Below are positions 8,162-35,353 of a stretch of 36,011 nucleotides of DNA, piece by piece. Source of the DNA: Sanchytrium tribonematis (Eukaryota); the NCBI GenBank assembly GCA_018985235.1, contig JADGIG010000035.1, positions 1 through 36,011 of the forward strand. The letters run 5' to 3'. Position 1 is the stretch's first letter, and each line of letters starts with the position of its first letter. The notes under the pieces are model-generated. The model searched no databases. It had not been told where the DNA came from and was given only the letters and a program-made list of their open reading frames with translations. Made by a program: the position numbers and the translations under genes.

Positions 8162-8567
8162 TTTCCTTGTTTTACAATTAGCTCCTCTAAAGCATCGTTA
8201 GCAATACGTCCATCAATTGCAATATTGAATAAATGTTTAGGTATCAGGATAACTACCTGATTTTGAAATAAATGTAATTTTAATCTAAATTAGGATATCA
8301 AAATTTTCGACCGAGCATTATCAAACCATGATAAACTGATTTATAATTGCTTAAATTGTGCGAGAATTGTAAGCTTTGATCACCTGTTTCTGTAACATTT
8401 TAGTCACGAGGGACGGGATGGCGCTCTAATCGCAATTCACCATTCTATTGGCAGTCTATTCAGGCCCTATAATGCGGCGCTGAGGCTTGGTTCTCGTCGC
8501 TTATACATACACAAGACACAAAATGGATTCTTCAATTTCCCTGTCAAGGAGCTGAAACCCTTGATTC

Positions 8568-13782: not shown

Positions 13783-15256
13783 TTATTGTGGCGTACCTTT
13801 GAATCGTAGAGCAAGAATGATCAGAATCACATTGCTCACAGCACTAATAATACTAAACACTAACAAATTTTGAGATTTGGTCAGATGGTAGGGTTCCATG
13901 GCTTCTTCCACAAACACAACCATCATGTTACCTAATGTTACTAGCAAGAGCCAGAAGCTACTGCTTGTTGATTTCATTCTCTTTCCAGCATACTGGTAAG
14001 CAAATTCGTTTCCTAAATAAGTTGAAACTACCCGTTGGACTGAAGAAAGACTCTCCTAGATTAAGTAAAATCCATTGTGGTAATTGGTATGCAGCGTGTA
14101 AACATTTTCCGGGTGCGCATATATATCTCTGGGTTTTTGGATCTACGGTTCCATTAAATCCCGAATCCACGTAGATTTCCAAAAAGCTGCTGAGAAAAAA
14201 ACTTAGTGTGACAAGTATAGCACCAATACAGATACGCTTCAGTGGCCCAAATGGCACACCTTTTTTTTCAAAAAGTGGATAAACCCAGGTCGCTAAAATA
14301 TAAACCATAATAATGACTAACAATGGGTTAAATACAGCAACAAACATTTCGTCTGTAATATTCACACCAAACCATGTTCCGTCCATTCTGGAATACTGTT
14401 CTTGCCAAGCTGTAGCATTTTGTTCATAAACCATCCAGGTAAACAAAAGTGGTAAAATCACCACAAACATTCTTATAAAGGCTCTTACTTCTTCAACAAA
14501 ATCATAGTCATACTCAGGTGATGCATTATCGAGGAAATCTACTTTTTTGTTGATAACTTTGGTCGTCTGTTTATTAGTTATTGAATTTTTGATTGCACTA
14601 AAAATTAATAGAATAGCTTTAAGTGGTAGAAATTCCCCAAGTGGTGGAACAAATACGTAATACTTATATCCAGCCACGAAGCATATAATGGCAAAGACAA
14701 ATAGAATTGCAGGAACTAAAAATCCAAGAAAATAACATGGTCCACCAAAACAAGTGATTTCATCTTTTAACAATGGAGTTATGAAGCCCGACATAACTGC
14801 GCCAATATTGATGCTGACATAAAAGTATGAGAAAAATTGTCTCATTAAATGTGCATCTTCGGCCTTAAATAGATCACCACCAAAAGAACTGACACATGGC
14901 TTAATACCTCCTGTACCGACTGCAACAAGCAGCAAACTTGCAGAAATAGTATATAGGGACTGAAATGCAGGCATTGATGTGACAGCTAAACCGACGAGAC
15001 CAAGCGCATAAACTATGGCAAGATATAAAATGGTTCTGTATTTTCCAAGAAAAGAATCACTAATAGCGGCCCCTATTAAAGGGAAAAAGTAGCAAATCAT
15101 ACTAAACATATGGGTATATTCTTTAGCTTTTACATCATCCGATCCGATAAATCGGAAATAATTAAAAAGTAATGGCCTAATTCCATAAAAGGAAAATCGC
15201 TCCATCAACTCCACAACGATAATAAAATACACAGCTTTAGGCATAGAAGATGTCAT
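13783..15256 (-). CDS. PTR2: POT/PTR family proton-coupled oligopeptide transporter; exons 15256-14032 and 14012-13783 (484 aa)
   Basis: Motifs ELMERFSFYG, GTGGIKPCVSSFGGD and FSYFYVSINIGA. Removing a 19-nt intron gives FSPTGNEFAYQYAGKRMKS, the conserved PTR 'GLEFAYxQAPxxMKS' region, and joins the two listed ORFs. Confidence 0.93.
14013..14031 (-). other. 19-nt spliceosomal intron GTAGTTTCAACTTATTTAG in PTR2
   Basis: GT-AG ends; removal restores frame and a conserved motif. Confidence 0.85.
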
Positions 15257-15635: not shown

Positions 15636-17678
15636 CTAAATTTGTCTTGGATACGGATTGTACTTTTGCAACAATACAAATCCCCCGCCGTATTTCTTTC
15701 TGATCACAATGATTACGACAATAACAATAATTATAAATCCGACTACTCCTCCAATAATTCCAGCTGTCATGGCAGTCTGATTAGCCACACTTTCACTGCT
15801 TGTCATACACATTTTTTGGCTTCTGTTGCTAAAATTGTTGTTCCTGGTGGACGCAAAACACTGCGATCCTACGTCTTTGATTTCTGCCATGTGACTAAAA
15901 TAAGGACCACTGGCTCCATTTAAATATTGGCAACTCATTGGATCTTGTTGCACGTTGTTGTCATCGACATTTGCATTCATGTCTGCCATTTTAGCAACCG
16001 AGTAGCAATTGGTTTGATTTATCCAAGCTAATGCCTTCAAGTCTTCTTGACTCATCAGATTAACATTAGCAACAGGAGCAATCAAATTTCCTTGTATGTT
16101 TCCTAAAGGGACCAGATTACTTCTGTCTGTACCGGCTAATCCTTGTCCTGCGTTGTTTTTATCATTATAATCGGAACCACACCATTGAAAATGTACCAAA
16201 TCTCCTCTGTTTACATTGACTTCACCTGGAACAAAATCGTATTCGACGCAATTTCTGACTTGTGCAATATTTCCTCTTTTTCCTCTAATATTTACATTAA
16301 TAATGTTTTTGTTTTCCAAATCGCTTGTTCTTTTCTTAATTTTGAAGACATAAGATCTATCTTCAAAAGTTCTAGAGTTTTGATTTGTATTCAAAGTAAT
16401 TTTCAAAGGAATTACATCCTCTGGTGCATTTCCGTTCTGGTAATCTCCTGCGTTGATCAATGGCTTGTTTTTTACAGCTTGATTGTCTTTGCTGGTGAAT
16501 GTTCTAGGCACTTCACTTGTGGAGATATTATATCGCAGTCTTAATGTGCAACGCAAATCATCTTTGGAAGTAAATGTACTAAGCTTTGGAATTCTCCATT
16601 GATAACTCTGAAGCTGGCCGCCTTGACCTACGGCAGAATCGTCTGATTTAGACATGACAACCTGTCCCAAGTGATTGTCGAGCAAATAAGGAGCTTGTAC
16701 ACAATCAGGCGCATTTATTCCCCAGCTGGGTGCAGAAACCCATTTTGCATTGACTCTAGGAGCGTTTTGTGTGGTGGTTTCGCAGTCCTTTTGATTATTG
16801 TACATCCAAAAGGATTTATCAGTTGGATCATTTTGATTAACACATTCTCCACGGCCTAGCACATTCTGAGAATTTTGCTGAATTTCGTTACAAACACTCG
16901 TATCACTTGTTAAGACAGCAATGTCTCTCCATGGAGTCCAATGAAAATATGGATAATAATCTCTTTCTTCGGTACATTCATATCCATGTCTGTCTCCATT
17001 TGCATTTTGTCTGGTAAATCTAGCACTCATGCGATTAGTATCAGTTGGGCTCAAATTGTTTGCAACATAAAGACCCATATTTCGATTTCTGGTTCGACAT
17101 TTATCGTAATATCTAAATGATTCGTGCTGTCCATAAGTAGCCATTTTTCTTGGAGAACATTTGCAAGCATCGCTGTTAAACGTGTCTCTGTTTTTTTGAA
17201 CGGTCAAATCCAACGTTGCACATTGATCTTGGCTTGTATTTGCAGTGCATTCTTCAGGAAGTGGTTTAGTTTGAGTACAACTTCCAGTTCCATCTGCATT
17301 TTTATAATCCACTGGAGAACGACCGTCAGTCAATACATAATCATTTAATTGAACTGTCCCCATATCCATTCCAAAAGCATCTTCACATCCTAATTGTAAA
17401 ATCATTTGACAGGTGTTTTTTTCTGGAAATAGTGGATCGTTTTTGGTGGCTCTGCCATTTCCACAAGCATGCTGTGAAGTCCATTGAATGTTCATAGTAG
17501 TATCTTCATAATATTCCATCTCTTTATTACAGATTCCATAGCCTCCAGCAGCATTATTCTGTGAATCAAATAACCGATTGTCGTTATTTCTGTCATTGGA
17601 TGCTTCATCACATCTGTCATTACTACCACGAGGATAATGCATGTACACATCTGCATAGACCAGCAGTGAGATAAGCAT
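15636..17678 (-). CDS. DD3-3-like type I membrane protein (signal peptide, Cys-rich ectodomain, C-terminal TM)
   Basis: Motifs DVYMHYPRGSND...NRLFDSQNNAAGGY, HGYECTEERDYYPYFHWTPWRDIAVL, LRLRYNIST, RGKRGNIAQVRNCVEYDFVP and TRNNNFSNRSQK are typical of the Dictyostelium DD3-3 family. The first ATG (17678) gives a short signal peptide. Confidence 0.8.
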   Translation of the reverse strand: MLISLLVYADVYMHYPRGSNDRCDEASNDRNNDNRLFDSQNNAAGGYGICNKEMEYYEDTTMNIQWTSQHACGNGRATKNDPLFPEKNTCQMILQLGCEDAFGMDMGTVQLNDYVLTDGRSPVDYKNADGTGSCTQTKPLPEECTANTSQDQCATLDLTVQKNRDTFNSDACKCSPRKMATYGQHESFRYYDKCRTRNRNMGLYVANNLSPTDTNRMSARFTRQNANGDRHGYECTEERDYYPYFHWTPWRDIAVLTSDTSVCNEIQQNSQNVLGRGECVNQNDPTDKSFWMYNNQKDCETTTQNAPRVNAKWVSAPSWGINAPDCVQAPYLLDNHLGQVVMSKSDDSAVGQGGQLQSYQWRIPKLSTFTSKDDLRCTLRLRYNISTSEVPRTFTSKDNQAVKNKPLINAGDYQNGNAPEDVIPLKITLNTNQNSRTFEDRSYVFKIKKRTSDLENKNIINVNIRGKRGNIAQVRNCVEYDFVPGEVNVNRGDLVHFQWCGSDYNDKNNAGQGLAGTDRSNLVPLGNIQGNLIAPVANVNLMSQEDLKALAWINQTNCYSVAKMADMNANVDDNNVQQDPMSCQYLNGASGPYFSHMAEIKDVGSQCFASTRNNNFSNRSQKMCMTSSESVANQTAMTAGIIGGVVGFIIIVIVVIIVIRKKYGGGFVLLQKYNPYPRQI

Positions 17679-17915
17679 AGAACAGATTGATTGACTCAAA
17701 TAGGGAAATTGGACTATTTATCTAGTCACATGTGAGACGTAAGAGATGGTTTGAGATGCAAGAGACGCTTATTAACTGTACGAGACATGGATATACTTTT
17801 GAGGATATATCCGAAGCATTATATGATTCCTACAATAAAATGGGATTTTTGCTTGAACGAGCCTCACTTGAATTTGGAAATTTAATCAGTTTCGAAGTCG
17901 ATCCATTTCAAAATT

Positions 17916-19502
17916 TTAACGGTGTTTACTAAATCCTTTAATTTTCATCAAAACATCTCTAGAATGTTTCCTGTCTTTATCGGTTATAGCGATTCCGTCC
18001 AAAATTTCCACCTTACTGTCAATCATCATGGACGCTCTGTATATCATTTTTTGAATATGCACAACATCATTTTCATGACTTTGGTTTTCATGCTGAAGTC
18101 CCTCATCATCATAATTTGTTCCATTATTAGGTGGATAGTAAGTAGCGTTTAAGATGTTATATCTCAAGTCTAAATCCTTGATAAATCTTAAACCCAAAAT
18201 CATTTTAAAGGATTTGATTCTATTTCCAGACAAATTAAGTTTACAAAGTGAGTGTAATTGGTACAGCGGAACAATATCGCTTATATTGTTGTAAGATATA
18301 TCTAATTGAGTCAAAGGCATTAAATTGGATATACCTTTGCTTGATATTCTTTTTAGATGCGATTGCCGCAGCTGAAGCTCATTTGTAATTTGCAAATGAT
18401 GCTTATTTTTAAGTTTATTATGAATAGATTTGAACGAAATGCACTTGATAAAATTTAAAACAATGTGAGGCGTGTGTTGATGTCCTATATCCAATAAACG
18501 CATATTCATGTTAGCAATCGAGTGTATTTGATTGTCGTGAATAACCAATTCTTTTAAATGGGGGTATTCTTTTCCATTTAAAATTTGAACTTGATTAAAA
18601 TTGATTAATAATCTACAAAGTGTTTTGGTCTCTTTGATAAATAACAAATCAACAAGCATATTATGGTTTAAATTGCATTCAATGACATTTGGAGGTAATT
18701 TAATCGATTGTAGATGATTATGCGCGACGTTAAGTGTTTTGCAATTCACATATTCTGACAAGTTTAATTCATTGTGATCGTGATTTGATAAATCCAAGGT
18801 AGTAATTTGAGCAATATCTATGGTTTTTTTAATATTCAAATTTGATATTTCTGGTGCTTTTCTATCTAATTCATCTGGGACAATAGCTTTATTCTTTTCA
18901 ATTCTACTTTGCTTTCTCGAATTGTTATTTATGGTGACTTGTAAATTTCTAATCTCATCGTTGATCTGTTGCATATTTATCTCATTATCTTTACTGTATG
19001 GATCAATTAACTGATTTAAAATATTGTGGAAATGCGAGGGATTCATATCTAAAATATTACTCAATGACGAAATCGAGTGATACGATGATTCATTCAAGGT
19101 TTCATTGTTTTCGAGGTTTTCATTGTTATTTTCATTGGGAGCTTCCACAAGCTGTTCAGCGGGATACGGAAATTGAAAATGATTCACGGTTTCTCGGTTG
19201 GGCGATGGAGGAGCGGATTCATTTGTCTTTTTCAATGTCTTTATTTTGTCTAGTAAAGAATTTTGACGAATATTACTTCTCTCTTGTGGTATTTGATCGA
19301 TTATAGCATTTAAATCAAAATCATTTAATTGGGAATTTACATGGCCATTAACAGTATCGCTTACTATAAGCTCATTTATTTTGTCACTTTCTTCTATTTC
19401 TTCATCTGGTGGTATTAATATGGATATATTATCATTATCGATAAAATCCAAATTGAATGAATCCAGCGAAAGATGTGACATGGAGAAATTTTGGATATTC
19501 AT
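17916..19502 (-). CDS. Leucine-rich repeat protein, Nud1/Cdc11 (SIN/MEN spindle-pole scaffold)-like
   Basis: Acidic, disordered N-terminal half; C-terminal LRRs (LDISYNNI, LNLSGNRI); LRR cap LDLRYN...YYPP...YR...ILDG. First ATG at 19502, alternative at 19481. Confidence 0.6.
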   Translation of the reverse strand: MNIQNFSMSHLSLDSFNLDFIDNDNISILIPPDEEIEESDKINELIVSDTVNGHVNSQLNDFDLNAIIDQIPQERSNIRQNSLLDKIKTLKKTNESAPPSPNRETVNHFQFPYPAEQLVEAPNENNNENLENNETLNESSYHSISSLSNILDMNPSHFHNILNQLIDPYSKDNEINMQQINDEIRNLQVTINNNSRKQSRIEKNKAIVPDELDRKAPEISNLNIKKTIDIAQITTLDLSNHDHNELNLSEYVNCKTLNVAHNHLQSIKLPPNVIECNLNHNMLVDLLFIKETKTLCRLLINFNQVQILNGKEYPHLKELVIHDNQIHSIANMNMRLLDIGHQHTPHIVLNFIKCISFKSIHNKLKNKHHLQITNELQLRQSHLKRISSKGISNLMPLTQLDISYNNISDIVPLYQLHSLCKLNLSGNRIKSFKMILGLRFIKDLDLRYNILNATYYPPNNGTNYDDEGLQHENQSHENDVVHIQKMIYRASMMIDSKVEILDGIAITDKDRKHSRDVLMKIKGFSKHR

Positions 19503-19643
19503 TATGACTTCGACAACATACAGAATCAAAATTACAAGAGTTGCTTCAAAGAGAATCTTTATGCTTGGTATAGATTTAAATTGTATCAAAAGTGGTGAAA
19601 ATCTTATTTGCAAATTGCGGAGAAAGTTTCAAAATTTTATTCC

Positions 19644-22600
19644 ATGATAGATCAGCAGTTTTACGATCTTCTGCAGAAAATAAATGCAAAAGACGGTCCT
19701 GTGGAGGTTGTACTTAGTCACATAAATAACACTGAATTTATAGAATTGCTAGACGCAGTCAAAGAAACATCTTTAAACGATGACTTTAAAGTTGGGATGG
19801 CTGCTATATTTAGTGGCTATACTATATCGGTCAAAGAGGTGACAATGCAGCAATTTGTTGACTATACTAGCGCGTGTATGTATTCATTTACAAATTACAA
19901 AATCAAACTGAAAACTCAAATTTTTGCAGAACAGTCTGAAAAGATCTTGAAAATTCAAAAGCATGGAGAGATCGAAGTTTTGAGGTCGAAAGTTGTAGAA
20001 CTTCAAAAGCATGTCGTTTCTTTGAGGAATACCAAAATCACAAATAATCAAAACCGGCGGGCTGGTGACCAATTACAAATTCTAAGCATTTTAAATTCTC
20101 TCTTGCTGAAGACCCCACTGTCAAATATCAGTGTATATTCTCACCCTTTACAAGAATATACCTTTGAATGGAAGATGAACAATACAGGTTTTAATTTTTC
20201 TTCAAAATTATACCCTGATGAGATATATACCATTGAAACACTTGTATTTTTATTAAGCCACATCAACGGGGATAATATGCTCATTTTGACCAGGATATTT
20301 GATGCATGTGGCCCCTTCTTTGCAAAATTCTCCGACAGATGTCATTTACTTAGCAGTAACCTGATAGTAAGCTCTTTAAAACGCTCCCTTCGTCGCAATA
20401 TATCGAGAAAACGGAGAAAATCAATTACCACAATGAGCTCTTTTACCCTCAGTAGAAGCGGTAGCGAAATCAGTTTGGCATCCATGAATTACCACGGCAA
20501 TTCAAAATTTCTTTATTCATATGTTGCCGTATTTGTTAAATTCTTTTTAAGCTATAAAAATGAGTTAATGCAACAAGACGATAATTTTCAAAGGAAAATG
20601 TTTCGATTCATGTTGTATTTTTTGGCATCAATTAATTTGGACGTACTCGAGAACTGTGGGACAGACAAAATATTATCATTTTCAGACCTTTCCGTAGTTT
20701 ATGAATTACTGCATCACTCTGCAAGAGATGAGAGCATTTTTAAAAAGATGATGCTCACAGAATCTCCAATGATATCGGCCGAAATTATGCACAATTTATA
20801 TCAGTTAGAGCTGCATATCAAGCGTCACAATAGTAATAATTTGATTTTAGTTCACGAATTCAATTTTGACACCCTTTACGATTTTTATCAACCAATTGCC
20901 TGTGAGCATATCGAGCAACTCGTATCTTACGATTTTTCAGTTTTTCATCCTGAATTACAAAATTATTTTGTATTTGAGATAGAACACAGGTTGGAAGGAT
21001 TATTTCAACATATTCAAGAAAGTATGCCAGAAGCGTATTTTATGCCACTCTTCTCTTTACTACACACTGGTGATATTCAATACTTTATTACTCATCACAA
21101 AATAATGAAATATCATCACAATTTATGGATTGACCCAAAATTATTTCTAACTATTTTAGTTATGATTTTTGAGCCTTTAAGATCTCCAGTATTTGGTCAA
21201 GCTTTGGTTTTATTGCAATTTTATCATTATTGTGCACCCACTACTGTCAATTTCGACAAAATTGCAGATATATTTGATCTTGATTGTGACCCTCTCATTT
21301 TTGCAATTTTGATGCAACTTTTTCAAAAATTATTTTTACTAAAAAGGAAACAAAAAGTTTTTTTGTACGAATTGTTGAAGCAGGCCATTAAGTACAAACA
21401 TGCTTCAATTGACATATCTCCGATAACTCAAATTTATGAAAATCATGCTCCAGAGTTGCTTGTAGATATCCAGAAATTTCCCAAGCACACTCTGGACCAC
21501 TTAATAGAAACCATTTCAATAGCATTTGTTCACTGTGATAAATCGCAATTAGAAGAATTGCTAGACATCTGTAATGATTTGCTTTGGGACCATCCAACTA
21601 TTGCAAGTTTCATTTTTCAGCTATTCGATAAATTTCCAAAGCAGGTGTACCGCTATTACGTTAATTATGGAAAGAACAGCAATGCTGCATTTATACTATT
21701 TCATTATAGAAACTACTTGAATACTAAACAAAAATTACTTAAGAATCAACTTTTATTTATTCCCATTGAATTGGGCACCATGCAAGAAATTATGTATCCA
21801 AATTACCTTCAAGTTCTTAAACAAGAATATATGCAACTAAACACCGAAATTGTAGAAGACCCAGATGAAACTTTTCGACATTTGAAGTCCATGCCAACCA
21901 TTTCTACTCAAAACAAACCGATGCCTCATTTCCTAGGTCTTTTATTTCTTAGACTGAACAATCCTATTGTTTTAGAATTTATATGCAGAGATGATCCATT
22001 CTTTATTATAAAAGTTGCATTTATGGAAATAGAAAATTCGAATATTTGCTTTCTTTTAAACAAATTAATTTTGATAGATACCGTCGCCATGAATCAACTG
22101 TGTACCATTCTTTTGAACTACATTGTAGGATATCTGAGAAAATTGAAAGCACCGCCTCTCAGCGTTCTCATGCCAATGTGTGAACTGCTCACAAATTGTT
22201 TAAAATACGGAAATGCCATTAATTTAAAAGATTTGATTAAAAACAAAGTTGTGCACTATCTAATACCGTCAAATGAACAGCCATATACAGATATGGATAA
22301 TGAGCACAATTACATTTGCTTTAATAGCTGTCAAAATCTAAATATTTTTTATTTGAAGCACCACCAGCCTTTGCAATTGATTCCATGTGTCAAGGAATTT
22401 GAAACAACTTACTATTCTTCATTTTTGCTCGCCAATCTACATTCTACGTATATGCATTCTTTGCTACCACTTCTTCTCAGTCAAGATTTGAATATCATTC
22501 GAAATACGACTGGTTTTTTGTTGTTTTTGTTTCAAAAGCAGCCCTCTTTATTAGATGAAGTCATGTTGCAGCAAATTTGCACGCAATTATTATTATTAGA

Positions 22601-24041
22601 GATTAAAAACGATTTGATTAAGCAGTACAGTTACTATTTTATTTACCACGTCTATCAAATTCATTCTGATTATTTTATATTTGCTTGCATCTCTAGTAGT
22701 TGTGCCCAGATACATCAACCAATGATCAAGAGAGAAGATATGCCAGATATCCACCCAATTAACGTGTTTTTAGAAAATGTAATTGATGCTTTGAAATTTA
22801 ACCACCAGCAATTTGTTATTGAAAATATCAACAACCTTTTGGAAAATTTCAGAACTTCTCATTTTATACAAATAGAGCCTTTGCAGCAAGACGTCATTAA
22901 AGATGCTTTTACGCTGAATATGCTCACAAAATTACTTGTTAATTTAATTTGCGAGTTTAATTTTAAATCACCGCAATTAATGGGAATGTACAATATTGTT
23001 TGTCAAAATTTTGAAGATGAATGTTGCCAGCAAGGATTTGCCCAAGTCATGCATTTAATGGCCAAAAACATCAAGAAGATATATTTTAGAGAGTCCCAAC
23101 AAAGCAGAGAATTAATCGAATTTGCTTTTCAAAATCAGTGGCTCCATTTATCTATTTTAGCTGACGTTTTAGCTATTTTGAAAGTTTACTTGAAATATGC
23201 TCCTGTTATAAAACTTGGCGAATTTGAGATTCAGATGAAGGAATTTCACAATATTCATTACACTGACAATGACATTACTTCTATATTTACTGCAATGGTT
23301 GAAAGCAAGAATCCAAGTGTTATAGAAGTGCTATTTCGACTTTGCAAAAATCTCAAATGTGATTCATCTAGTTTTGAGCCAATTTATAAAGGAATTATTG
23401 AGAAGCAAAATCATTTGCTTTGGGTTTTGAAGATTATCTCGCCTGAAAATGTGGTAAAGCAAATGGATATTACGCCATCATATCAAAGTTTGATCGAAGT
23501 GTTGTTTCCTCTAGGCTACACACATGGAAATATTGAATTTATGAAATTATTAAGCAATTTTTTTAGTCCACTGCTAGGCCATCAATTATTGGTAATTTAC
23601 AAAACTTCAAATGTAAAACTAAATTCTGTAGAATTTGAGAAATATTATTTGCTGTTACTTCTTATTTGCGTTCAAAAATCATTAGCCAGTCCATCAAATT
23701 GCACGTTTTTTACAATTTTGTTTAACGAGCTAATTTCAAAATCAGATCATTATGATATTTTAGAACTTGGCAAACAATATGTCAAACTTTCCGCCGCTAA
23801 TTATTCTCAAACCCTTTTTATTCATGAGATCAAGCAATCAAAAATGAACAGAGCTCTGGTTCTTGCAGCCAGATTTAAAAAAGCATATCAATCCAGTAAA
23901 ATAATAGGCAGACGGGGCTTGACTGTTTACGACTGTCAGATGACGATTGACCAAGTGAACGAAGAATTATCTGATTTCATTCTGAAAGAATTTAAGCAGG
24001 AATCCATCCAAATACCAGCATTTTTAAAAGAAGATGCATGA
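19644..24041 (+). CDS. Large helical-repeat protein, UNC80-like (tentative)
   Basis: Intronless ORF of about 1465 aa. CRDDPFFII, ILLNYIVGYL and INLKDLIKNKV resemble UNC80 segments (CLxEDP, LFNYLVG, xFRDLK) recalled from memory. Confidence 0.45.
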   Translation: MIDQQFYDLLQKINAKDGPVEVVLSHINNTEFIELLDAVKETSLNDDFKVGMAAIFSGYTISVKEVTMQQFVDYTSACMYSFTNYKIKLKTQIFAEQSEKILKIQKHGEIEVLRSKVVELQKHVVSLRNTKITNNQNRRAGDQLQILSILNSLLLKTPLSNISVYSHPLQEYTFEWKMNNTGFNFSSKLYPDEIYTIETLVFLLSHINGDNMLILTRIFDACGPFFAKFSDRCHLLSSNLIVSSLKRSLRRNISRKRRKSITTMSSFTLSRSGSEISLASMNYHGNSKFLYSYVAVFVKFFLSYKNELMQQDDNFQRKMFRFMLYFLASINLDVLENCGTDKILSFSDLSVVYELLHHSARDESIFKKMMLTESPMISAEIMHNLYQLELHIKRHNSNNLILVHEFNFDTLYDFYQPIACEHIEQLVSYDFSVFHPELQNYFVFEIEHRLEGLFQHIQESMPEAYFMPLFSLLHTGDIQYFITHHKIMKYHHNLWIDPKLFLTILVMIFEPLRSPVFGQALVLLQFYHYCAPTTVNFDKIADIFDLDCDPLIFAILMQLFQKLFLLKRKQKVFLYELLKQAIKYKHASIDISPITQIYENHAPELLVDIQKFPKHTLDHLIETISIAFVHCDKSQLEELLDICNDLLWDHPTIASFIFQLFDKFPKQVYRYYVNYGKNSNAAFILFHYRNYLNTKQKLLKNQLLFIPIELGTMQEIMYPNYLQVLKQEYMQLNTEIVEDPDETFRHLKSMPTISTQNKPMPHFLGLLFLRLNNPIVLEFICRDDPFFIIKVAFMEIENSNICFLLNKLILIDTVAMNQLCTILLNYIVGYLRKLKAPPLSVLMPMCELLTNCLKYGNAINLKDLIKNKVVHYLIPSNEQPYTDMDNEHNYICFNSCQNLNIFYLKHHQPLQLIPCVKEFETTYYSSFLLANLHSTYMHSLLPLLLSQDLNIIRNTTGFLLFLFQKQPSLLDEVMLQQICTQLLLLEIKNDLIKQYSYYFIYHVYQIHSDYFIFACISSSCAQIHQPMIKREDMPDIHPINVFLENVIDALKFNHQQFVIENINNLLENFRTSHFIQIEPLQQDVIKDAFTLNMLTKLLVNLICEFNFKSPQLMGMYNIVCQNFEDECCQQGFAQVMHLMAKNIKKIYFRESQQSRELIEFAFQNQWLHLSILADVLAILKVYLKYAPVIKLGEFEIQMKEFHNIHYTDNDITSIFTAMVESKNPSVIEVLFRLCKNLKCDSSSFEPIYKGIIEKQNHLLWVLKIISPENVVKQMDITPSYQSLIEVLFPLGYTHGNIEFMKLLSNFFSPLLGHQLLVIYKTSNVKLNSVEFEKYYLLLLLICVQKSLASPSNCTFFTILFNELISKSDHYDILELGKQYVKLSAANYSQTLFIHEIKQSKMNRALVLAARFKKAYQSSKIIGRRGLTVYDCQMTIDQVNEELSDFILKEFKQESIQIPAFLKEDA

Positions 24042-28606: not shown

Positions 28607-29540
28607 TTATTTTGTAAATGCCAATAAATCTACCATAGTTTTTAATGTCAAATCTAAGTTTTCTTGAATAGATTCATTTGCAGCATCCCTCAAATGTCTT
28701 TTTGGGTCTTGTTTGCCAACGTGTCTAGACTGCAATTCTTCCTCTGTCATTTTCAGTTCTTCTTGGACTGATTTGTTGTATAATTCTGCCAATTTGAGCA
28801 TATGCGTCATTTGTTCAGCGGTGTGTTTGTTATGTGTTTCCATATCTTTTTGAAATTTAAGAGGATATGACCATTCTTTTTGGTGCACATTAAGCAGCAT
28901 TTTTTCTTCTAGTTCATTTTTCTTGTATGATATTGGCATCGAGTAATAGTGTCTATTCAAACCGTGCACCAAAGCCTAAGTTATTTCTAATTACTTGTAT
29001 TGAAGGCTTATTCAAATGACCAAGATTGCTGCTGGTTTGTCTCGCTTCTTGTCCAGTCATCATGGTCTGCGGGCTAATTAAACGAAATGCATCTATAACA
29101 ACTTTCCCTGGAACACTTTGAATAGGGTCAACTACGACGGCAACGGCACGATTGTTTAGTTGTTCAAATGATTGCTGGGTATTAATGTCAACACTACTCA
29201 ACCAACATCCAAATCCGGGATGTGAGTGGTACCAACCAACTACATTTTCCGGCCTACCAGTCAGTTTTAACATATCCATCATTTGAGTTTGAAAAACTGG
29301 ATCCACAGCTTCAACGCTGACACCAGTGCCGCTTTGAGGCATGGCAAAAACATCGATAACCTGGACTGTGTACTCGTCAACAAATTCTCCAAGCATCAAT
29401 CCCATCACTTCCATTGGAACTCCGGCACGACCATGCTTCAACATTTTTAATAATGCTAGGGAGGATATGTATATGGTTTCTGAAGTATCTGTATCTACAG
29501 CAGCAGCACCTTGTTGGCCAAATAAACTATTAAAATCCAT
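28607..29540 (-). CDS. RPN11: 26S proteasome lid deubiquitinase Rpn11; exons 29540-28995 and 28975-28607 (304 aa)
   Basis: [25 protein letters not shown] and JAMM motif [17 protein letters not shown]. Splicing gives the canonical [17 protein letters not shown]. Confidence 0.97.
28976..28994 (-). other. 19-nt spliceosomal intron GTAATTAGAAATAACTTAG in RPN11
   Basis: GT-AG ends, phase 0; removal restores the near-invariant [13 protein letters not shown] with no residue gained or lost. Confidence 0.92.
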
Positions 29541-29691: not shown

Positions 29692-30459
29692 TTTTGGGCT
29701 TGTTAGAGCTAATAAGCGAGAACGGATCTTGCTTTAAGATGTTACTTTTGTTTCTCGCTGTGATGATGGCTATTGTAAGAGTACCTAAAAAATTCGGAGA
29801 ATCCAATGGGAAATTTAAATCTAGAACTCTCGGACGCGCAAAGCCAAAGCAGGATGATGAATCAATCGAGAAAGATAGCCCATCAGTGCCTATATTGATA
29901 AGTCAAAGACGTCCTGGAAATTACTCCGACAGCGCAAAAGAGGGGTTCACTGAATATTCTGATAGTGCAACTCATAAAAATTCTGTATTTGTGCTTCTGG
30001 CAGTATATTATTTACATTAGTAAAAGTTTTCAAATTTTTCTTTGACATTTGGTCTAAGTTAGAATTCATGCGGTGATTGCCCAACCACATGCCGCCGAGT
30101 CAAGGGGGTCGGTTAGTTTGCCTTGTGTTCACACTTTTGTTCAATTTTGAATAGACAATATAAAATTCGACCTTCTATAAAGTCAAGGCAAGGTAAAGTA
30201 AATGTCTTTTCAAGCTTGAAAGACATTGATTTGCGCTATTTTAAGCAATAACATTGCGGCGCTGATATTTGCAGTTCTTTAATCTAATAAATATCATTAA
30301 AGCTGCTTCACATATCAAATCATTCCACATATGCCAACTATTTCTTCGAAATTGGCGGACAAATCCTCCTCGTTGCGGGACATTTGTTTGTTTTAAACAT
30401 GGTCTATTTTTAGAGTGTCTAAAAATGGGTATAAAATGTAAAGTTTCCCCAATTTATCA

Positions 30460-31458
30460 ATGAGCTCTCAAAACAATCAAGGAATTATCTCAAGCGTAAC
30501 TGAAAAAGCTAAAGAATTAGTTGGCATGGCTGGTGACACAGCCGGTGATGTTAAAAACAGTGCACAATCTCAAGCTAATAGCACTTCTAGACAGGCGAAG
30601 GGTGCTGCTGAAGACACTAAAAATAAGGCTAATTCTCAAGCCAAGGATGTCAAAAGATCTGCTCAACAAACTGCCAATCAGGCTCAAGACAAGACTGAAG
30701 AGGCCGCAAATACTATCACAGGCAAATTGTCAGATACTTACGAATGGGCAACTGGCCAAGGAAAATACTCCAACGAACCTAGTGTCGGAGAAACTGCTGA
30801 AAAGAAATTAGGCCAAGCTAAAAATGAAGCTGGAAGAACAGCAGAAGATAAGAAAGAAAAAATTGGTCAAAGTATTGAACAAACAAAACAAAGAGCAGGT
30901 GAGGTAGCTGAAGATACAAAACAAAATGCTGAAGAAAAGAAAAACATTTTGACAGAAAAAATCGCTGATACCTATGAGTGGGCAACTGGTCAAGGAAAAT
31001 ATTCCGATGAGCCTACTATGGCTGAGACAGCTCAAAAGAAGCTTGGCCAAACTAAGGATAGTGTAGCCGAAACTGCTCAAGAAAAGAAACAAAATTTGGA
31101 TAAATCTGTTGAGAACACTAAGAAAATGGCTGGTGAGAAATATGACAACGCGAAAGAGTATGCACAGGAAACTGCTGATAGTACACAGAAAGCTGCAGAA
31201 GAAAAGAAAAATGTTATCACTGAAAAAGTTACTGACACATATGAGTGGGCAACTGGCCAAGGAAAGTATTCAAACGAGCCAACTATCGGTGAACAGGCTT
31301 CTGACAAACTCTCTGATGCTAAAGAAAATATGCAGTCAAAAGCTAAACAAGCTCAAGACTCTGCAACTGGTACTGCTAAAGAGGCAAAGAAAGACACTAG
31401 ACAAACCGCTCAAAAGGCTAAAAAGGAAACAGACAAAAAGACTGGATTATTCTCTTAA
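30460..31458 (+). CDS. LEA (group 3-like) hydrophilin with internal repeats
   Basis: Rich in A/K/E/T/Q with 11-mer periodicity (e.g. AQETADSTQKA), and three copies of DTYEWATGQGKYSxEP. Confidence 0.8.
   Translation: MSSQNNQGIISSVTEKAKELVGMAGDTAGDVKNSAQSQANSTSRQAKGAAEDTKNKANSQAKDVKRSAQQTANQAQDKTEEAANTITGKLSDTYEWATGQGKYSNEPSVGETAEKKLGQAKNEAGRTAEDKKEKIGQSIEQTKQRAGEVAEDTKQNAEEKKNILTEKIADTYEWATGQGKYSDEPTMAETAQKKLGQTKDSVAETAQEKKQNLDKSVENTKKMAGEKYDNAKEYAQETADSTQKAAEEKKNVITEKVTDTYEWATGQGKYSNEPTIGEQASDKLSDAKENMQSKAKQAQDSATGTAKEAKKDTRQTAQKAKKETDKKTGLFS
30733..31272 (+). repeat. Three copies of a 39-nt coding repeat (DTYEWATGQGKYS) at 30733, 30967 and 31234
   Basis: Identical peptide with only synonymous differences; spacings are 234 and 267 nt. 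Confidence 0.9.
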
Positions 31459-32532: not shown

Positions 32533-34359
<1,827 letters not shown>

Positions 34360-34735: not shown

Positions 34736-35353
34736 TATTTTTCATACTTTTATTTCTTTAGCTATTATTTTTTTAAATTTATTTCGACTCTGTCAAATAT
34801 TATTTAGGGTAGACCTATGCTCTGACCGGGTTTCGAACATCCAATGTCTGAGTTCATTCCTTATTCAAAAACCACATCCAAATTATCAATTTTTAACTTT
34901 GTTGAGTATCTCAAACCCAGAAATATTTAGAGGTAATGAAAAGTGAATTCTATTATTTGAAACTGGAGTCCCAAACATGAAAACTGATGCAAATATCAAA
35001 TCATTTGGTCTGAAAGTATCATACTTATCTTGACAGTTGTTTGAGCAATTTCTCGGTTTTATAAAAAATGTTGTCTTATTACAGACCTCATTTTATCGCG
35101 AAATAGTTAATTTTAAAATCGCTCTAAGTATTCATATTCGAACAAAGAATTATTTTTGTTTTCACAGAGTAACTTGATCTTCTTCTGATGTCAACTTCCT
35201 TAAAAAAAGGCTCCTCGGAATGAAAAAATATCCGGATAACTTTTGTCCTTAACATCACCCCATGTTGTGCAAATTGTCAGCTGATTTAGATGATAGATTG
35301 TCTAAATTTTAGACAGAGTCTTACATAAAGAAATCAGCCTCATTCCTAAGAAT

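Follow-up and report, generated by a model that had tools for sequence, protein, structure and literature searches.

The locus studied here raises the question of whether a 19-nucleotide (nt) segment within RPN11 is an intron removed by the spliceosome and, if so, how an intron of this size came to be present in its lineage. The segment lies in a 36,011-nt stretch of DNA, all of which was analyzed and which we refer to as the window. A first-pass annotation had proposed a 19-nt intron at positions 28976..28994; the sequence at these positions was confirmed, on the minus strand, and the gene is organized as follows.

28995..29540, minus strand: RPN11 exon 1, with the ATG at 29540, 182 codons, last residues KPSIQ and the JAMM/MPN domain (PF01398).
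28976..28994, minus strand: predicted 19-nt RPN11 intron, phase 0, with the 5' site GTAATT and the 3' end TAG; the same site occurs in relatives.
28981, minus strand: predicted branch-point A of this intron, at intron position 14 (-6 from the 3' end), within TAAC.
28607..28975, minus strand: RPN11 exon 2, with 122 codons and TAA, starting ALVHGL and carrying the Rpn11 C-terminal domain (PF23594, E 7.8e-21).

The segment begins with GT, ends with AG (28994-28976, minus strand) and separates codons 182 and 183. Without the 19 nt, the gene encodes a normal Rpn11 of 304 amino acids, whereas read-through adds 13 codons before a stop and yields a product of 195 amino acids. Both flanks are conserved: 153-154 of the 182 exon 1 residues are identical to those of Paraphysoderma, Spizellomyces and Parasitella, and in exon 2, whose reading frame is open, 61-67 of 119 aligned residues are identical to those of three named fungi. 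The junction falls in a motif that runs from KP.[IV]Q to [AS]LIHGLNR without a break in 110 of 121 Rpn11 relatives (8 of the 121 leave it with V, and it is absent in 3). We scored every deletion of 1-60 nt that began no more than 30 nt from the junction. Four 19-nt deletions in adjacent registers came out on top, and a single one of them (score 1095) is GT...AG; the next GT/GC-AG candidate scored 758. The earlier claim that exact removal restores the protein was therefore borne out. GT...AG was found in 182 of the 71,984 19-mers of the window (0.25%) and GT...AG with an A at -6 in 59 (0.08%), and a looser 19-21-nt motif had 26 matches across the window. Because the motif is common, the evidence lies in its coincidence with the sole break in a near-invariant protein. 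From this comparison of DNA and protein, we consider it very probable that the segment is a spliceosomal intron.

Sanchytrids are a group of algal parasites, and the nearest named Rpn11 and PTR2 proteins were those of the sanchytrid Amoeboradix gromovi (EukProt). Two quick single-gene trees, of 25 rows each, were built. The PTR2 tree joined the window protein, A. gromovi and three ENA proteins in a clade (SH-aLRT 100) that was sister to Blastocladiomycota (96), and the Rpn11 exon 1 tree united six read-through proteins (SH-aLRT 98). The PTR2 placement agrees with the position published for Sanchytriomycota (PMC8371127). Thus, the fungus-like lineage that had been suspected is, by the nearest names and both trees, that of the sanchytrids, and these sequences assign the window to Sanchytriomycota, grouping with A. 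gromovi and sister to Blastocladiomycota.

Published sanchytrid genomes are single-cell assemblies (PMC8371127), so one might suspect that errors of assembly or sequencing produced the 19 nt, or else that they are a frameshifting insertion in a pseudogene. However, three sources (EukProt, ENA and Logan) supply five other entries that are interrupted at this codon, by inserts that differ. These relatives are 85-94% identical to the window over exon 1, and pairwise identities among the sanchytrid read-through proteins over that exon are 79-97%; the ends of the inserts are kept and their inner sequence differs. A shared break codon combined with unrelated inner sequence speaks against assembly error, and likewise against a pseudogene or a frameshift. 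In addition, exon 2 is open, conserved and matched by Pfam, and an artefact would have no reason to favor GT...AG with an A at -6, a combination present in so few 19-mers (0.08%). An artefact or pseudogene is therefore highly improbable.

Intron lengths in the relatives were back-translated from predicted proteins rather than read from DNA, as the GT...AG length that lets the remaining tail encode the expected exon 2; applied as a control to the window's own two tiny introns, the method yielded 19 for both. By this procedure the RPN11 insert is 19 nt in A. gromovi P0004 (20/20 downstream codons match), 19 nt each in P0005 and P0007 (7/7 codons each) and 23 nt in P0121 (6/6 codons). The P0003 tail ends after six codons, and its insert is 21 nt provided that the stop is the terminal TAG. 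When the method was run on 122 short Rpn11 entries, seven were resolved, comprising five clade members (19-23 nt) and two outsiders (43 and 79 nt). This run left out lengths divisible by 3, tails of <3 or >45 amino acids and entries ending near the C-terminus; since most outside tails stop inside the intron, it does not rule out tiny introns elsewhere. Matches to a degenerate pattern of sanchytrid Rpn11 at three loci in JGI metagenomes were rejected as chance matches in non-RPN11 DNA.

These lengths also bear on the idea that no splicing takes place and that ribosomes shift frame at, or bypass, the 19 nt. An insert of 19 nt amounts to a +1 shift after six codons, but the inferred lengths of 19, 21 and 23 nt span all three frames, and one insert contains an in-frame stop. 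Moreover, the six extra residues vary among relatives inside a motif that is otherwise unbroken in the 110 of 121 homologs. We find such recoding scarcely credible, and a spliced intron remains the preferred explanation.

Two further introns in the window have homology support.

14013..14031, minus strand: second 19-nt GT...AG intron, phase 1, in PTR2 (PTR2/POT peptide transporter), with an A at -6 (14018).
33716..33832, plus strand: 117-nt DBP2 intron, phase 1, with a hairpin at intron positions 15-105 and an A at -6 (33827).

Without its 19 nt, PTR2 encodes 483 amino acids, and SPTGNEF is restored as in Blastocladiella, Catenaria and Sorochytrium. At the same site, relatives have 20 nt in P0123 (12/13 codons) and, provided that the stop is TAG, 20 nt in P0124. 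P0128 has 20 nt at a different site (31/34 codons), and the A. gromovi entry P0125 breaks at another site and reaches a stop four codons later. The breaks of P0125 and P0128 both fall near YEQNAT but are 7 nt from each other, in a region that lacks an intron in the window, P0123 and P0124; it is possible that this difference reflects recent gain, loss or sliding of an intron within the clade. The DBP2 position is widely shared, its junction reading ARGL-D in 77 of 99 and ARGL-G in 18 of 99 proteins (50% representatives), among which no close sanchytrid DBP2 entry was found. RPN11, PTR2 and DBP2 thus account for the three supported introns among ~25 genes, though weakly conserved genes could have further introns close to their ends that this count misses. 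Neither a blind scan for open-frame GT...AG segments nor a scan of ORF ends, each with many candidates, gave further convincing introns in the window. Motif matches at the ends of a 693-codon ORF (15654-15636) and a SIR2 ORF (31507-31488) added no coding length and were dropped.

As to the class of the RPN11 intron, it has GT...AG ends, its exact removal restores a conserved reading frame and, at the sequence level, a branch-like A lies near the 3' end within a motif compatible with U2 (TAAC, A at -6). Minor (U12-type) introns have the 5' site RTATCCTT; the 5' sites of the window introns are GTAATT, GTAGTT and GTATGA, none of which fits this motif. By these features it probably belongs to the major (U2-type) class, as an ordinary member of it that occupies an ancient position. 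Removal outside the spliceosome, through Ire1 cleavage and RNA ligation, would be another way to excise so short a segment, as fungi do remove HAC1/XBP1 introns of such size (19-26 nt in general, 19 nt in C. albicans and 20 nt in filamentous fungi; PMC2606855). The likeness is one of size only: HAC1/XBP1 introns are Ire1-dependent, bordered by repeats and structured, and none of these properties was seen in the RPN11 and PTR2 introns. The CTGCAG-like border repeat is absent, and neither tiny intron folds better than its shuffles (z +0.65 for RPN11 and +1.20 for PTR2), which argues against removal of this kind, as do the GT...AG ends, the branch-like A and a position common to plants and animals. 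We therefore give Ire1-type removal very little weight, and return to the U2-type spliceosomal intron.

An A at -6 was present in all three window introns. In the relatives it is forced by the codons in six of eight inferred introns, a count that includes P0003 (21 nt) and P0124 (20 nt), both on the assumption that the stop is the terminal TAG; the codons leave the other two open, and none is incompatible. The RPN11 intron has no room for a pyrimidine tract. In the mechanism that we propose, U1 and then U6 would pair with GUAAUU (intron positions 1-6), a two-base linker would follow the 5' site and U2 would pair with the bases around the predicted branch-point A (position 14). A 14-nt lariat loop would then be closed in the first step, leaving a 5-nt tail, and the AG would be selected through its constant spacing from that A. 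PTR2 (19 nt) shows the same geometry, as does the 3' end of the 117-nt DBP2 intron, so a spliceosome restricted to a single intron length is unlikely. Among the rows listed in the A. gromovi annotation table (PMC8371127 supplement 4), there are entries for Prp8, Brr2, Snu13, SF3B1, U1-70K and the U2AF small subunit. No snRNA genes (Rfam) and no tRNA genes were found in the window. Further entries of the A. gromovi table stand under the identifiers for the U2AF large subunit and SF1.

If left unspliced, RPN11 RNA would reach a stop 13 codons on and lose the Rpn11 C-terminal domain; since this is a core proteasome subunit, efficient splicing would be needed. It should be noted, however, that the short introns of E. 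cuniculi are on average <20% spliced (PMC6349667), so high efficiency should not be assumed for RPN11. The intron may be genuine but, as in microsporidia, inefficiently removed and left in most transcripts; decay of unspliced RNA would then either hold Rpn11 at adequate levels or have a regulatory role. We hold this to be possible but rather doubtful; it modifies the best explanation and still assumes splicing. The V. culicis median of 25.3% (PMC4435813) points the same way, as does the scarcity of introns in the window (3 introns in ~25 genes), given that intron-poor reduced genomes tend toward retention (PMC6009652). On the other hand, introns of 18-21 nt in the B. natans nucleomorph are >90% spliced (PMC6009652), and the U1-70K and U2AF rows are kept in A. 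gromovi, whereas no U1 snRNA was found in E. cuniculi (PMC3629993).

Whatever its efficiency, the splicing proposed for RPN11 would act at an old site. Among 116 short Rpn11 entries from other organisms than the clade, 29 exit the motif with V at the same break codon; Linum, Dreissena, Ixodes and Timema are examples. The simplest reading of these predicted proteins is that the intron position predates the split of plants, animals and fungi. Because the position is common to plants and animals, an old intron would have shrunk, and the sanchytrid novelty would be shrinkage and not gain. The first-pass annotation had suggested an independent origin of tiny introns in this lineage; this stands for the shrinkage, but not for the intron itself, which is not new. 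It is likely, from the sequence comparisons, that the RPN11 intron has shrunk in sanchytrid fungi to near the smallest size that a spliceosome can handle.

The DBP2 intron folds into one long near-perfect hairpin (-48.7 kcal/mol, z -8.9, 0/200 shuffles), flanked by 14 free nt on the 5' side and 12 nt on the 3' side. Its 3' arm contains a second CTAAT and AG, ending at 33816, 16 nt upstream of the true 3' site and also with an A at -6; use of this alternative site leads to a stop three codons on, giving 381 amino acids instead of 553. The last 20 nt of the intron (33813-33832) likewise read GT...AG with an A at -6. Rfam gave only a weak MIR8675 match to the hairpin (29 bits against a cut-off of 90.8). 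In the plant DDX5-like helicase DRH1, a hairpin over an alternative 3' site mediates negative feedback (bioRxiv 10.64898/2026.01.23.701338), and the DBP2 intron is like this plant DEAD element in layout, with a hairpin over a second branch-like site and AG. Our hypothesis, drawn by analogy from one sequence, is that DBP2 may be controlled by a similar feedback loop.

The introns have consequences for annotation. EukProt entries correspond to unspliced products, of 195 and 209 amino acids for RPN11 (304 when spliced) and of 432 and 290 for PTR2 (483 when spliced), and the window's own read-through products of 195 (RPN11) and 432 (PTR2) amino acids are among them. The expectation that such genes are mis-annotated was thus correct as to the outcome, truncated read-through proteins, but it had blamed the minimum intron length of gene finders. 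In the sanchytrid genome paper, proteins were predicted with TransDecoder on assembled contigs (PMC8371127 section 18), and in A. gromovi the truncation goes back, as far as that source describes it, to this ORF calling on genomic contigs and not to a minimum-intron setting. Since the EukProt sanchytrid proteins that we checked were truncated at introns, claims of gene or domain loss in the phylum that rest on those sets need a splice-aware recheck.

Several other features of the window were noted. Intergenic spacing is very short throughout, and the window is gene-dense. A cysteine-rich ORF of 693 codons (15636-17717, minus strand) has a C-terminal hydrophobic stretch and no Pfam match; we take it to be reminiscent of DD3-3-like proteins. 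At 30442-31458 (plus strand), a hydrophilic repeat protein of 338 codons has three YEWATGQGKYS repeats and an apolipoprotein match below the cut-off, and is presumably LEA-like, judging by its appearance. The LRR gene at 17916-19628 (minus strand) and the 1480-codon ORF at 19599-24041 (plus strand) are divergent, and their stop-to-stop frames overlap. Three regions (30030-30130, 8200-8560 and 34745-35300) have no clear long ORF and no Rfam or tRNA match and are partly richer in GC than their surroundings; divergent non-coding RNAs might lie there, or else small genes.

Among known tiny introns, those of heterotrich ciliates and chlorarachniophyte nucleomorphs had been named as precedents by the first-pass annotation. 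Both hold, but the list was incomplete, lacking mikrocytids (16-17 nt), Paramecium (20-34 nt), E. cuniculi (22-76 nt) and myxozoans (median 22 nt). Reported lengths are 15-16 nt in heterotrichs, 16-17 nt in Mikrocytos and 18-21 nt in nucleomorphs (PMC10245619, PMC6009652), and 20-34 nt in Paramecium (PMC6009652). In Stentor coeruleus, introns of 15-16 nt have the branch A at position 10 of 15 or 11 of 16, i.e. at -6 (PMC9505925). These heterotrich introns resemble the sanchytrid ones in being GT...AG and AU-rich, with an A six bases from the 3' end and a 5-nt lariat tail, but belong to an unrelated lineage and number in the thousands, whereas the sanchytrid introns described here are few and of 19-23 nt, with one of 117 nt as well. 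The recurrence of the A at -6 in ciliates and sanchytrids suggests a shared geometric floor. Chlorarachniophyte nucleomorphs share the size range, AU-richness and a reduced genome (PMC6009652, PMC10245619); however, they are relic endosymbiont nuclei with >800 introns in ~300 genes and only GU-AG as a motif, whereas the sanchytrid introns sit in a fungal nucleus and have their branch-like A at a fixed place. Mikrocytos mackini is also parasitic, its gene set is reduced and its introns are tiny (16-17 nt; PMC10245619), but it is a rhizarian with 224 near-uniform introns and a spliceosome of 17-19 proteins, and the sanchytrid table has U1-70K and U2AF rows. Microsporidia are fungal-side parasites with few short GT-AG introns (22-76 nt in E. 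cuniculi; PMC3629993), though their minimum is longer than that of sanchytrids; because sanchytrids branch with Blastocladiomycota, far from Microsporidia (PTR2 tree; PMC8371127), shrinkage would be separate in the two. Myxozoans and dicyemids are opisthokont parasites with introns <30 nt (lowest animal median 22 bp; PMC13644364), but they are animals, and their putative branch A lies farther from the AG in longer introns, whereas the sanchytrid A stays at -6 where it can be read.

Our search of the literature on sanchytrids, Sanchytrium, Amoeboradix and Sanchytriomycota found no published report of tiny sanchytrid introns; subscription papers and some supplements lay outside it, and a prior mention is possible. 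In two sanchytrid papers, the word 'intron' occurs once each, in the reference list. The available parts of PMC8476143, PMC4435813, PMC6349667, PMC10158995, PMC11613528 and PMC9730499 give no fungal spliceosomal intron <22 nt and no intron lengths for Blastocladiomycota, and sanchytrids are unmentioned in that of PMC13644364. The RPN11 segment, likely a real intron, is shorter than any fungal spliceosomal intron that we found in print. What would be new here is the presence of tiny introns in a further, truly fungal lineage; tiny introns as such were already known.

On a broader and more tentative view, to which we give less than even credence, the sanchytrid spliceosome would be tuned phylum-wide to introns of 19-23 nt whose branch A has a fixed place at -6. 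As a class these would be the shortest introns of any fungus or animal, and they would have arisen by contraction of introns that date back to the last eukaryotic ancestor, with U1 and U2AF proteins retained. A long intron would persist only if folded to that scale (in DBP2, a single hairpin with ~26 unpaired nt about it), and the hairpin would also hide a second 3' site, creating a helicase-sensing feedback loop parallel to the plant DEAD element. Introns below ~22 nt have been reported from few lineages, namely heterotrich ciliates, mikrocytids, chlorarachniophyte nucleomorphs, Paramecium and myxozoans. Tiny introns inside true fungi, beside Blastocladiomycota, would offer a way to examine how small an intron the spliceosome can sterically accommodate, with orthologous intron positions in close relatives for comparison.
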